Below are positions 32,974-46,575 of a stretch of 64,000 nt of DNA, piece after piece. A program made the translations under genes and the position numbers. The notes under the pieces are model-generated. The model worked only from the letters and a program-made list of their open reading frames with translations, was not told where the DNA came from and did not search any database. This DNA is from a virus. Taxonomy: Duplodnaviria; Caudoviricetes. The stretch is taken from the IMG/VR virus record IMGVR_UViG_3300044935_000065; one strand, 5' to 3'. Positions within the stretch are counted from its first letter, which is position 1. The number at the start of each line of letters is the position of its first letter.

Positions 32974-33540
32974 GTTTACCGCCGCACAGGCGGCTCTGAA
33001 TAGCATATCGAGACTGAAATGCCCGGTCGGCATGTTTACCGCCGCACAGGCGGCTCTGAATTATTCGTCGTTGTCATTCAAATCCCAAATTCCGTTTACC
33101 GCCGCACAGGCGGCTCTGAATAGGTGCGCAGTCCCGCACATTGATCAGATATCGTTTACCGCCGCACAGGCGGCTCTGAATTCTACAGCATGCAGAGAAA
33201 TGGAGGGTATTGAGTTTACCGCCGCACAGGCGGCTCTGAATAAAAAAAACGACGACCAGGCAGGACCAGGTAAGTTTACCGCCGCACAGGCGGCTCTGAA
33301 TATCACACCAACGAGATAGGTATCTCTCGTTTCGTTTACCGCCTTCTGGCGGCTCTGAATAGCACTGTCAAATTCATCGACAAACAGGATACGTTTACCG
33401 CCGCACAGGCGGCTCTGAATTTGCAGCGCGTTTGAGACCCTGCAATAGTCACGTTTACCGCCGCATAGGCGGCTCTGAATACTGGGTAGTCGGTTTACGT
33501 ATCATCGTGATAGTTTACCGCCGAACAGGCGGCATAGATA
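32974..33540 (+). CRISPR. CRISPR array: type I-F-like 28-nt repeat GTTTACCGCCGCACAGGCGGCTCTGAAT, 10 repeats, 9 spacers of 32 nt; no cas genes in the window
   Basis: Repeats start at 32974, 33034, 33094, 33154, 33214, 33274, 33334 (27-nt variant), 33393, 33453, 33513 (degenerate terminal); CCGCC/GGCGG stem. Confidence 0.98.
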
Positions 33541-42902: not shown

Positions 42903-43112
42903 ATGGGGAACTGGAAACCAAGGCCTAACCAAAATCTACGACCTGAACAGAAGGCCAATTACTTCGCTGGATACAGTGATGGATATCATGGTTATAATCA
43001 TGGATCTGGCCATGATGATCCGAGATCATCTCCCTCATATGAGAATGGATGGGAAACCGGACGTAAGGATGCGGGCTTTGAATCCAATCTCCCTATTAAC
43101 TGGAAGCGTTAG
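42903..43112 (+). CDS. Small protein, weakly ribosome-modulation-factor-like
   Basis: Y.AGY.DG..G...Y..GW..G pattern; AAGGA RBS. Confidence 0.45.
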   Translation: MGNWKPRPNQNLRPEQKANYFAGYSDGYHGYNHGSGHDDPRSSPSYENGWETGRKDAGFESNLPINWKR

Positions 43113-43117
43113 TTTCA

Positions 43118-43345
43118 ATGCAAGTGGCAGCAATAGAGACCGCGCAGCGTTTTCGGGAACGGCTGAGGAATGAGCGGATCAGGAGACGTTGCTCGCAATC
43201 CGATCTAGCAACACGAGTTGGCCGTAGTCGAAAGTGGTTATCGGATTTCGAACGCGGTCTCATAGAGCCATCGTTTGTTGTCGTTATTGCACTGGCCAAA
43301 GAATTGAACATATCCATTGAATTCATCTCCTCAGATGCCGAATAG
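43118..43345 (+). CDS. XRE-family HTH transcriptional regulator
   Basis: LRNERIRRRCSQSDLATRVGRSRKWLSDFERG..EPS. Confidence 0.85.
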   Translation: MQVAAIETAQRFRERLRNERIRRRCSQSDLATRVGRSRKWLSDFERGLIEPSFVVVIALAKELNISIEFISSDAE

Positions 43346-43416
43346 CCAGAAACTGTTGACCATAGCGAATGATTGGTGCAGTACGATAAAAACGGCTCCA
43401 ATACGAGGCGAGGTTT

Positions 43417-44091
43417 ATGCCAGGCTACGATCACAAAGATCCAAAAAATCTTCGCATCGCGAAAGAGAAATTGCAGAAAGCTCTTAAACGAGTGACTGCA
43501 GAACTGGAAAACACTACGACCACATATGAAGCAATGGGTAATTCAGATGTTGGCAAAGCACTAACACCACATCTCCGGAAGAATTCATTTAAGGCTCTTC
43601 ATGTCTATCAGGGTGAACTCGGTGGATGGTTTGCAGATGTCGAACTTAAAGGGATGCCTCCTGGAATTCCACGAATTATGGGTACACCTGTTGCATTACC
43701 ATTCGAAACGAGGGAAGAAGCTGAAGAAGCAGGCGAGATGATCCTCCTGACACTGCTCGCGACTATAACGCGGGAAAAGGAAACAAAGGATATCGATGCC
43801 GAAAGCGCTGTTCTTGATTTCTATGACGTAACGTTTCCATTTCCGATTGAAATCTTGAGGAAATTTATTCAGGAATTTGGTAAGCCCTCTGACAAAAGAC
43901 TCTCCGAGGCTATTCATGACTTGGAGGAGTTGCTTGTCGTGAATAACGAGGTGGTTACCTCACGTCTGGAAAATGCAGATCAAGCACTGCATCAGCGCAT
44001 CGGGATCAATCTTATGGTAATTTTGGCTTCTGACACCTTCAGATGGCCATCTCCTAAAGAGCAACGTCCACAAAAGCACACAAGGCATTGA
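43417..44091 (+). CDS. Hypothetical protein
   Basis: 224-aa ORF, GAGG RBS. Confidence 0.75.
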   Translation: MPGYDHKDPKNLRIAKEKLQKALKRVTAELENTTTTYEAMGNSDVGKALTPHLRKNSFKALHVYQGELGGWFADVELKGMPPGIPRIMGTPVALPFETREEAEEAGEMILLTLLATITREKETKDIDAESAVLDFYDVTFPFPIEILRKFIQEFGKPSDKRLSEAIHDLEELLVVNNEVVTSRLENADQALHQRIGINLMVILASDTFRWPSPKEQRPQKHTRH

Positions 44092-44124
44092 TATTTCTAT
44101 TATATTGGTGATTGTTGATTTTTT

Positions 44125-45300
44125 GTCTGGCAGGCCGAGAGGCCTATGCAGCGATTGCCATTGACGCAATCTGCGTCTAGGTTTTTTAGCTGCTGGTCTG
44201 TACCTACACAGACGAAGCTCTCTCGGTTCGCACAGATAACGGAAAGCTCAAATCCCGATTGGGATGCCATTCCGTGGGTCGTTAAGTAGCCAAGTGGGCT
44301 TACGATGCCGTCTCCCGGCACTGCCACCTGGCAGGCAGCGTTACAGGTTGGGTTTACGTTCGACCGTCGCCGATACCACCAGCCTGCGAGCTGTGGGTTC
44401 TTCTAGGATGCCTTTGCCATCAACCTTTAAGCGCTACTCAGATTGACAACTACAGTTTGACGTCCCCCGAACCCATCAGGTTAAGTCCATCCTTTTTGCT
44501 CACATAGCATCGGGTAACAACCGATGATCTGAGGCGTGAAGTTCTTAAGAGCGCCTTCGTTTCAGCTAATCCAGCCAAACTAAGGTCAGACGACACCCGA
44601 ACTCACAAGGTGAAGTCCGCTCTCTTACTCCCTTCCGCTCTTTGAGCCAGAAGTAGCGAATGGGGCCGATTCAACCACCGAGACGTTTAGCGCCAAACCT
44701 GGGCACGTCTCCAGTCTATCTCGGCCCCCAACACTCACTGAGGCCAGCGTCACCGGAGCACGACTGAAGTCGATCTTTCCAGATGGCCATCCCTCACACG
44801 GCAGAGGAATGTCCCAAACGCGATAGAGGGGGCTGCACGCCGTTAGCCTCTACGCGAATGGATTTGCATCCCCTCGCATGAGTGTCGCCGAATTCAAGGG
44901 CCGGAAGAACAAGTCCTCCTATTCTCGGCCGAGACATCCCCACCCGTAAATGATGGATTGCCCTCGAATTCGACAGGTGAGCGGCCAGACATCACAAGCT
45001 GGTCTGCGCAATGGTAGCGAACCATTACAGGATTCCGCGCCCACCCATTTGCCCGCCTAGGTCAGGCAATGATCTACCTGATCCTGCCTAGGTCAGGACC
45101 GTCCATAACGAAGACCTTAAAAAGCCTTCGGACACTAAGGGATGTCAGTAAACCAGAGTACATGCCTCTAGCTAACTGTCATGATTGCCGAATACACGAG
45201 ATTCGGTCAGTCATGGCCGCTTCGCGGCTCAACCCTTTGCTGAATGGGCTGCTTAACATGCCAGCATTAATCAGCTGCCTATCGCTGATCACCCAATTCA
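44125..45300 (-). ncRNA. Candidate very large structured non-coding RNA (~1.2 kb; GOLLD/ROOL-like); strand and ends uncertain
   Basis: No convincing ORF; GC-richer than flanks; over 20 local stems plus long-range stems (GGGGCCGA 44662/TCGGCCCC 44721; GAATTC.AGGGC 44890/GCCCT.GAATTC 44960); minus strand appears purine-rich. Confidence 0.7.
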
Positions 45301-45347
45301 AAATAGAAACACGGCTGCCCGTTGTTCCCAGTTTATTTGACAAGGCC

Positions 45348-45626
45348 TTAGCGTGCTTCTTCAGCAGTAAGTCGCTTGCCCGACAGTTCGATCATTTCCG
45401 CGCTGTTCAGGAAGCTAAAGCTATCGGACCTTTCGGTTCGCAACTCAGGCTCCTTTTCCGATGATAAGGTCTTAAAGCGTGTGATGTCAGCAATAAGGCA
45501 GTTTGAATTAACAAGCTTTCTCATCGCTTCGTTCATTTCTTTAATTCCCGTAAATCGGAAGACGCGGCGTTTATCGCCTGTCGATGATTTAATATTGGCA
45601 TGCCCATTAATTTTGTCAACAGACAC
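45348..45626 (-). CDS. Hypothetical protein
   Basis: 92-aa ORF. Confidence 0.5.
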   Translation of the reverse strand: MSVDKINGHANIKSSTGDKRRVFRFTGIKEMNEAMRKLVNSNCLIADITRFKTLSSEKEPELRTERSDSFSFLNSAEMIELSGKRLTAEEAR

Positions 45627-45660
45627 CGCACATTTTTCCTAAAAAATATAAATCTATTTA

Positions 45661-46575
45661 TTAGAACCTCCTTGTCATCGTAGGAGCAAATAAATCAAGT
45701 TGCTCTACCAACATAGCTTCGGAATGAATTTTGTGATCCATAATTAAAGCCGCAACTACGGGAGCTGTCTCAATATTAATTTTGACTAACCATGAAAAGT
45801 CGGTATCTCGCGAATAAATCCGATTATTGCTAGAAATTGATTGTTTGATGTCCTCAACAAAAGCGTCATTTTTCTTTTCAAAATTAATAACTGCCATCAT
45901 AACTGGTCCTGGATCATCAAAAAAGCCGTCGCTCTCAAGGAAATATGCGGCACGTGAATGCTTTAATACTTCATCGAGGTCATTATCGATACCATTCCCG
46001 ACCCTAACATCAAGAAATACGCCTTCGCTATCATAGAGGTCGATAGCAATGTTTGTTGTCGTGGAATTTCTGGGTATGACGAACTTGTCGTTCTTTTTGT
46101 CGTATTGAGGTAACGCGATATATCTTTCGCCATGCCTTATGTCAGAGAAACTCGAAAGAATTTTTTGATTTAGCCCTACATCGATTTTAGACTGATATAA
46201 ATCGATGTAATTTTCCCCATAGGAAAGCAAGAGGGATGGCTTTCTACTTCGAACTTCGTCTTCTGAAGCTTCTGGTGGTTGGATGGCAATGTTCTTAATG
46301 CTGTTCCGAACTAGTAATTCTATGTTTTTACGTTTATTGGGGTCGTCGGTATATTTTTTAGACAGTTGCTCCGCATACTTAGGCATTTTATTTCGAACTG
46401 TAGATATCTCATCTCGGGACCATTTGTGCCCGCCGTGATAAACGGCGTTAATAGAGTGAAAAAAGCCCGCATCTGGTTTGTTGTAGCCTTTTTTGTCCTG
46501 CTTCCGAGCGCCGTCACAATCCTGCGCCAAATCGCTGACGAACTGTTGAAGTGTAAAACCCATGTTATCCTCCAA
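45661..46575 (-). CDS. Hypothetical protein (CDGA...D..G.NK.D N-terminal module)
   Basis: GGAGG RBS before MGFTLQ; module resembles N-termini seen on some phage/plasmid helicases. Confidence 0.7.
   Translation of the reverse strand: MEDNMGFTLQQFVSDLAQDCDGARKQDKKGYNKPDAGFFHSINAVYHGGHKWSRDEISTVRNKMPKYAEQLSKKYTDDPNKRKNIELLVRNSIKNIAIQPPEASEDEVRSRKPSLLLSYGENYIDLYQSKIDVGLNQKILSSFSDIRHGERYIALPQYDKKNDKFVIPRNSTTTNIAIDLYDSEGVFLDVRVGNGIDNDLDEVLKHSRAAYFLESDGFFDDPGPVMMAVINFEKKNDAFVEDIKQSISSNNRIYSRDTDFSWLVKINIETAPVVAALIMDHKIHSEAMLVEQLDLFAPTMTRRF

Follow-up and report, generated by a model that had tools for sequence, protein, structure and literature searches.

A candidate ~1.2-kb structured RNA encoded behind a small protein gene in an alphaproteobacterial type IVB secretion element

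The large RNAs known from bacteria comprise ribosomal RNA, RNase P, group II introns and the OLE, GOLLD and ROOL RNAs. GOLLD (~800 nt) occurs in phages and in Lactobacillales and lake metagenomes, ROOL (~600 nt) is carried by prophages and plasmids, often near tRNA islands, and OLE (~600 nt) is found in extremophilic Bacillota, where it forms a ribonucleoprotein with the OapA, OapB and OapC proteins. RNAIII of Staphylococcus aureus (514 nt) combines RNA structure with coding function in that it encodes delta-haemolysin. Here we describe a conserved block at positions 44125-45638 of a 64-kb stretch of DNA (the window) from IMG/VR record IMGVR_UViG_3300044935_000065, the minus strand of which is predicted to specify a 62-codon gene followed directly by a very large, structured non-coding RNA.

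Work using cryo-electron microscopy in 2025 revealed that large ornate RNAs build unexpected RNA-only assemblies (PMC12286853). GOLLD employs symmetric palindromic kissing loops for homo-oligomerisation, OLE forms a dimer through a palindromic loop, and ROOL, which is reported to be highly expressed and non-essential in one strain, assembles RNA-only cages by means of kissing loops (PMC12286853). The RNA predicted here shares with GOLLD a very large, multi-domain form, covariation-supported helices and carriage by a mobile element, but it is ~50% longer, alphaproteobacterial, and preceded by a protein gene that shares its promoter. Moreover, the phage or prophage and tRNA setting of GOLLD is not shared, the window containing no tRNA and showing no similarity to phage records. 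The likeness to ROOL is that of an ornate RNA on mobile DNA, although there is no Rfam match, the size is doubled, tRNA genes are absent from the window, and oligomerisation is here a matter of conjecture. Like OLE, which has protein partners, the RNA is large, conserved and located in a fixed gene neighbourhood; unlike OLE, it has no Rfam match, comes from a different phylum, and has dotM, HTH_3 and parM genes as neighbours instead of oapA and oapB. Finally, RNAIII offers the precedent of one transcript joining a small open reading frame (ORF) to extensive conserved secondary structure, but the transcript predicted here would be about three times longer, with its structure almost entirely 3' of the ORF, and host and context differ.

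The original prediction, made from the letters of the window, proposed either a GOLLD-like RNA or a new, longer class. Searches with Rfam 15 give no match to the RNA region at gathering score, and only chance matches (snoTBR4, serC, flavivirus xrRNA and STnc320) are seen at E ≤ 10 for positions 43900-45700 or at E ≤ 5 for three homologues. The covariance models of GOLLD, ROOL, OLE, RNase P and group I and group II introns are among those that find no match in the window or in three homologues. Membership of GOLLD is therefore not upheld, given the absence of any Rfam match even at E ≤ 5-10 and of a tRNA or phage context, and it is the second alternative, an RNA that belongs to no family described in Rfam 15, that survives. 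The region has the descriptive features of a large ornate bacterial non-coding RNA, being longer than ~500 nt and multi-domain, with covarying helices and no coding signal, and the ~1.2-kb RNA very probably represents a new class of structured RNA.

The conserved block and the fold of the RNA

The block is present in seven lineages with 76-84% nucleotide identity, these being the window itself and the loci that we designate L002, L004, L005, L007, L008 and L012. The closest named host is the alphaproteobacterium Mesorhizobium sp. SP-1A, the genome of which came up in a search with the nearby DotM protein (83% identical at the protein level; 1.19-Mb contig) and holds the locus at about 386.8-388.3 kb of NZ_JAVXZD010000002.1, and five further lineages, all in metagenome assemblies, were reached through the small ORF. 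Compared with the SP-1A locus, identity is 84.4% over the block, 78% over the type IVB genes and 68-74% over the other flanks, so that conservation is higher in the block than in the protein genes around it. The ORFs immediately adjoining the block on its two sides, encoding 304 amino acids (aa) upstream and, convergently, 224 aa downstream, are absent from the SP-1A locus. In all seven lineages, conservation sets in at the minus-strand -35 box, upstream of which the flank is unalignable, and stops at 44125, GGCCUCUCGGCCUGCCAGA within the 3' helix, beyond which alignment again fails. The structured region had originally been placed at 44125-45300; its 3' edge is retained, while the upstream edge has to be moved, as the block reaches 45638. 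The unit has the following parts:

45591-45619, minus strand: sigma-70-type promoter (-35 TTGACA, 17-nt spacer, -10 AATATT; scan score 10/12)
45537-45584, minus strand: predicted 5' leader, with the transcription start at ~45584 placed from the position of the -10 box
45348-45536, minus strand: small protein gene of 62 codons plus stop, with an alternative start at the fifth codon (45524)
44125-45354, minus strand: predicted ornate non-coding RNA body of ~1.23 kb with ~50 helices, the first of which includes the small gene's stop codon
44163-44187, plus strand: terminator-like hairpin followed by a T-run, found by scanning (GACGCAATCTGCGTC then TAGGTTTTTT) and located inside the 3' domain of the RNA

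All of the -35 hexamer and the greater part of the -10 box are identical in 7/7 lineages, and an A/T-rich tract lies just upstream of the promoter at about 45620-45645. Positions 45619-44125 of the minus strand would form one autonomous transcription unit giving an RNA of ~1.46 kb in the window (from the predicted start at ~45584 to the 3' boundary at 44125). The first part of this RNA would be a structured leader and a genuine 62-codon gene; the second would be a multi-domain non-coding RNA of ~1.2 kb, directly behind the gene and base-paired with its stop codon. The predicted transcript would end at GGCCUGCCAGA, with the 3' end of the RNA buried in the 17-bp closing helix. A second promoter-like site (45490-45461) was rejected because it is not conserved in the homologues. 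The opposite-strand hairpin with its A-tract (44163-44187) faces the convergent 224-aa gene in the window and is largely kept in 7/7 lineages although the convergent genes differ; it may be a built-in insulator that stops convergent transcription from the downstream cargo gene.

A G+C-richer stretch without a convincing ORF had been noted from the sequence, and both parts of that description hold. Positions 44125-45347 have 53.8% G+C, compared to 43.9% for the whole window, and the longest ORF on the two strands does not exceed 75 aa; the ten ORFs of at least 41 aa in the body correspond to no Pfam family at E ≤ 1, apart from a single match (E 0.16) that is at chance level. Because 117 of the 149 gap runs in the alignment of the body are 1-2 nt long, a conserved reading frame is ruled out in this part of the unit. 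The minimum free energy of a 976-nt core is -402 kcal/mol for the minus strand (z -5.6 relative to dinucleotide shuffles) and -342 kcal/mol for the plus strand (z -3.5). The shuffle comparison proposed with the original prediction is thus positive for the minus strand, but two coding controls of equal length give z values of -1.2 and -3.0, so that the folding energy is only moderately distinctive, real but not decisive alone.

Covariation in the seven-sequence alignment bears directly on the fold. RNAalifold predicts 351 pairs in 51 helices, with 96.9% of cells occupied by standard pairs, and 43 of these pairs show double compensatory changes. Shuffled alignments give 21.8±3.0 such pairs (0/500 reach 43), and controls in which the partners are slid by 1-3 columns give 3-7. 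Moreover, 71% of paired positions are invariant compared to 55% of unpaired ones. The excess of double changes argues that selection acts on the RNA fold itself, and the homologue search and covariation check suggested at the outset, with compensatory changes above both kinds of control in an alignment of seven lineages, bear out the claim of a very large structured RNA. Regarding orientation, the consensus contains 275 G-U cells and 27 A-C cells, and its energy is -406 kcal/mol compared to -329 kcal/mol for the reverse-complement alignment, which is 77 kcal/mol worse. The G-U excess and the energy difference together indicate that the minus strand is the one from which the RNA is read, which matches the orientation of the promoter and the strand initially favoured.

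Most of the stems listed in the original prediction are recovered in the consensus fold, and four of them covary, namely GAATTC.AGGGC/GCCCT.GAATTC, GGGGCCGA/TCGGCCCC (enclosing GAGACGT/ACGTCTC), AATGGT/ACCATT and GTCTGT/ACAGAC, all of which carry double changes. CGCG.TAGAGG/CCTCTA.CGCG and CATGA..CCGAAT/ATTCGG..TCATG are likewise part of the consensus fold but vary on one side only, and CATCGG/CCGATG sits in a segment that is present in three lineages only. ACGGAA/TTCCGT, however, does not appear as a helix; RNAalifold instead pairs its 3' arm long-range (helix 14). Several long-range helices are invariant and hence unproven, an example being the 5-bp helix that closes the central 940 nt, and a reading of the alignment leads us tentatively to favour the local hairpin ACGGAA/UUCCGU over this competing long-range helix.

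The small gene and the domains of the RNA

The small gene, which shares the conserved promoter with the RNA body, had been missed in the original prediction. Its 62-codon frame is open, free of indels and ends at the same stop position in 7/7 lineages; the other two frames contain 2-7 stops, and the ratio of nonsynonymous to synonymous polymorphism (pN/pS) is 0.3-0.7. An open frame and pN/pS alone would be weak evidence for coding. A profile search of 1.84 billion proteins detects six remote homologues of the small protein (47-115 aa) in other alphaproteobacteria, all of which share the motif RDxxRFxTLxPNGEAxL...F.YLNSAEM, and from these combined observations the 62-codon ORF appears to be a real protein gene. 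The protein belongs to no Pfam, PHROG, NCBIfam or PADLOC family, and its AlphaFold2 model has a mean predicted local distance difference test score of 57.5, which is too low for a fold search. When the whole unit is compared with the remote small-gene loci using nhmmer, a weak alignment is obtained within the ORF only and the RNA is unmatched, suggesting that at this divergence the protein sequence is the only part of the unit still recognisably shared.

In five of the six remote loci, the small gene is followed, 55-95 nt downstream, by a gene for a conserved protein of ~195 aa without a recognised family; the sixth locus (L026) has an unrelated gene at this place. The cassettes are located as follows:

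L017:373-1231, L018:322-1269, L019:619-1445, L021:158-1185 and L025:2039-2751: small gene plus ~195-aa gene, an uncharacterised two-gene cassette

The ~195-aa protein is also present in Rhizobium leguminosarum, Pseudorhizobium pelagicum, Agrobacterium sp. DSM 25558 and Roseospira navarrensis, and searches of the ESM Atlas and of family libraries with this partner returned nothing usable. In the lineage of the window, it is the RNA that occupies the position of the ~195-aa gene behind the small gene.

Structure is also predicted for the 5' part of the unit (~240 nt), where RNAalifold gives 74 pairs, eight of them with double changes. The leader pairs with distal segments of the ORF, the start region of the ORF is predicted to lie in helices, and two leader positions covary with synonymous ORF sites (pairs 41-134 and 54-122). 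The RNA does not appear to be free-standing, since it would be placed directly behind the small gene and base-paired with it. The body itself is predicted to consist of these domains:

45132-45354, minus strand: 5' domain, closed by a 9-bp helix (helix 2) that includes the UAA/UAG stop codon
45049-45098, minus strand: two tandem hairpins (45082-45098 and 45049-45069) with an invariant 7-nt loop, ACCUAGG, identified in the alignment
44887-44974, minus strand: three-way domain, closed by the 15-bp helix GAAUUC.AGGGC/GCCCU.GAAUUC (helix 19)
44662-44884, minus strand: two multi-branch domains (44732-44884 and 44662-44728; helices 23-33) with 10 double-change pairs
44505-44644, minus strand: expansion segment (~130 nt) with the second copy of a 41-nt motif (GGACUUNACCUNNUGNGUUCGGG...), direct repeat D1
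44125-44501, minus strand: 3' third, made up of a motif-A domain (44388-44501), three hairpin domains and a terminal domain (helices 36-51)

In the helix that closes the 5' domain, the third base of the stop codon is A in the window and G in the other six lineages, and its partner is U here and C in the others; the same domain contains an invariant 17-nt hairpin, UGCUGGCAUGUUAAGCA. The loop of the tandem hairpins, ACCUAGG, includes the palindrome CCUAGG, and a search for conserved pseudoknots shows that, outside the two CCUAGG loops, the RNA has no conserved unpaired stretches of at least 5 nt that are complementary to each other. RNAalifold joins the two copies in a long helix, a solution that we rejected for two local hairpins. 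In the long-helix model, the changes seen in the window and L007 would amount to one double change, two wobbles and one mismatch, and reading the alignment by hand shows that they are compensatory only in the local model, where the stem of the first hairpin has two compensatory changes, in the window and L007. The stem of the second hairpin varies on one side only (G-U).

Helix 19 is the best covarying of the stems in the original prediction, with double compensatory changes in 6/15 pairs and 99% of cells paired. The two copies of direct repeat D1 (44448-44488 and 44578-44618) are 76% identical with a spacing of 130 nt, and the expansion segment that holds the second of them is present in the window, L002 and L005, while ~50 nt take its place in L004, L007, L008 and L012. 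The terminal domain is closed by a 17-bp helix ending at GGCCUCUCGGCCUGCCAGA, and the 3' third contains the invariant runs UUGAUGGCAAAGGCAUC and GGCCUCUCGGCCUGCCAG. Lineage-specific insertions are located in hairpin tips and linkers of the RNA (L007:3566-4742 and L005:5172-6464); L007 has 13 nt inserted in the loop of one helix, and L005 has ~45 nt beside the expansion segment. Insertions at such places are the pattern that would be expected of a modular structured RNA.

Genomic context and distribution

The window places the unit beside dotM, an HTH_3 gene, parM and type IVB secretion genes, and the order dotB-icmT-parM-(193 aa)-dotM-HTH (helix-turn-helix)-[unit] is seen in every locus, followed by genes that differ between lineages. 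Gene content at 43100-44100 and downstream of the RNA in L004, L005 and L008 is specific to each lineage, and this variable DNA spans the interval from the 3' end of the RNA to conserved genes for a 457-aa protein and peptide deformylase. The presence of lineage-variable genes beside the RNA suggests a cargo region or an integration hot spot that abuts the RNA gene. Between the HTH gene and the promoter, the window lineage alone has an orphan 304-aa ORF (45661-46575, minus strand). A search of 5.8 billion clustered proteins finds no homologue of its product other than itself, yet it is present on 136 contigs, and it has a weak match (E 2e-4) to a PHROG without assigned function. As an orphan, this protein cannot serve as a synteny anchor. 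Elsewhere, the window contains no tRNA, and its sole match to Rfam at gathering score is a CRISPR-DR4 repeat at 33513-33540 (plus strand; 35.5 bits compared to a threshold of 35 bits).

The distribution of the RNA class is narrow. BLASTN searches for the region find no similar DNA among PLSDB plasmids or 50,697 phage records, and a BLAST search with the RNA matched SP-1A alone in samples of 401 genomes from the family and 401 from the order. Three motif scans of IMG/VR gave either nothing or chance 17-mer matches, and a scan of JGI metagenomes with a 22-base invariant motif returned one contig, corresponding to the P0004 lineage already known to us (L005). Searching the 401 genomes of the order with DotM yielded one further, distant match (G589), the locus of which has 62-65% G+C, is gene-dense, and is without an ORF-free gap. 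The RNA is single-copy in the SP-1A genome (G001), and BLAST of the RNA region against the whole window gives no match apart from itself.

Contigs carrying the RNA are 1.0-1.19 Mb in size. Of the SP-1A contigs that were considered for the RNA and RepC (C2, C8, C11 and C12), contig 2 (1.19 Mb) carries the RNA and is uniformly ~50-52% G+C although the strain is labelled as Mesorhizobium, and the three genes for RepC (repABC type) map to different contigs. Given the large contigs and the location of RepC elsewhere, the conjugative plasmid of the original prediction is only a putative carrier, and a chromid, a chromosome and an integrated element are all possible.

Proposed role and competing explanations

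By analogy with ROOL, GOLLD and OLE, we suggest, with a probability of roughly 60%, that the body is a stable, self-contained structural RNA of the host type IVB secretion element, one that may associate with copies of itself by way of two invariant palindromic CCUAGG loops. A scaffold role is favoured because selection is spread over ~50 helices across 1.2 kb and because the palindromic loops resemble the symmetric kissing loops of OLE, GOLLD and ROOL (PMC12286853). A cis-regulator, on the other hand, seems unlikely because nothing is conserved downstream of the RNA.

Several observations weigh against this proposal. The alignment holds only seven sequences, which are 76-84% identical and not phylogenetically independent; covariation was scored by a test other than R-scape, and one and the same alignment supplied both the structure and the counts. 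G-T pairs would also be tolerated if the same strand folded as single-stranded DNA. In addition, no canonical intrinsic (U-tract) terminator is present 3' of the end of the RNA, and the transcript, its ends and its abundance are inferred, with the conserved consensus promoter as the single line of support for transcription. The small protein is not basic (10 K/R compared to 11 D/E), so that nothing in its sequence points to RNA binding. The argument for oligomerisation draws on two loops only, which could instead pair with each other intramolecularly or serve the neighbouring HTH protein as DNA operators. Stability, oligomerisation, and links to the small protein or to conjugation have, like transcription, the standing of inferences.

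The first of the competing explanations is a dual-function regulatory RNA or giant structured 3' untranslated region, as in RNAIII, in which the transcript would mainly be the mRNA of the small protein. The body would then control translation or stability of this mRNA, or base-pair in trans with mRNAs of the element or host, and we regard both forms of the idea as unlikely, if well short of negligible. The small gene appears real and shares its promoter with the body, and the start region of the ORF, its distal part and its stop codon are predicted to be sequestered in conserved helices, some of which covary with synonymous sites. A body of 1.2 kb with ~50 helices, however, exceeds the needs of any known translational control element, and the greater conservation of paired positions (71% compared to 55% invariant) gives no pointer to single-stranded seeds. 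Moreover, the small gene functions without the RNA in the remote homologues.

A second alternative places the function at the level of DNA, either as folded single-stranded DNA of the transferred strand (an oriT, an ssi/Frpo-like element or an origin) or as an array of protein operators, in which the neighbouring HTH protein might, for example, bind the two CCCGACCTAGGCGGG palindromes. Proximity to type IVB secretion and ParM genes is consistent with such an element, as are the presence of two 15-nt near-palindromes 31 bp apart and the tolerance of single-stranded DNA for G-T pairs noted above. Nevertheless, the block begins precisely at a consensus promoter in matching orientation, and conserved DNA, which a primed origin would lead one to expect past the 3' boundary, is absent there. 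Nor is any oriT or ssi element known to resemble 51 covarying helices over 1.2 kb. Both the folded-strand and the operator versions are therefore improbable in our estimation.

A ribozyme or intron (group I, group II or circularly permuted group II) that has diverged beyond detection by Rfam would fit the size and multi-domain architecture of the RNA, which are in the group II range. Four sequences, however, show no match to intron, RNase P or other models at E ≤ 10, no reverse-transcriptase or maturase ORF is present (the body having no ORF >75 aa), there is no conserved downstream exon because the flanks differ in every lineage, and the RNA occurs once in the G001 genome; we consider this explanation very improbable. 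The last alternative, a decayed protein gene or unrecognised coding region, is hardly tenable and as a pseudogene effectively refuted: a ~195-aa gene does lie in exactly the position of the RNA in 5/6 remote loci, but a 23-member profile of this family is negative in six frames of all seven RNA loci (positive controls 1e-73 to 1e-106), tblastn with the family gives no match to the RNA, and the region is better conserved than its neighbour genes, with 1-2-nt indels and compensatory substitutions.

Returning to the structural RNA proposed here, we see a small chance that it is the largest ornate bacterial non-coding RNA yet (~1.2 kb), forming an RNA-only or RNA-plus-small-protein complex via its CCUAGG loops, serving type IVB conjugation or partition, and replacing the 195-aa partner. 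If true, nature would here have substituted a structured RNA for a protein partner. The existence of a named isolate, Mesorhizobium sp. SP-1A, with an 84%-identical copy should make experiments feasible if the strain can be obtained. New large structured bacterial RNAs are rare, and the known ones do sophisticated biochemistry or form RNA-only assemblies. The candidate described here would exceed every ornate class in length, comes from a phylum for which none is typical, and appears to be linked to a backbone of type IVB secretion and ParM genes as well as physically entwined with the gene of a small conserved protein.

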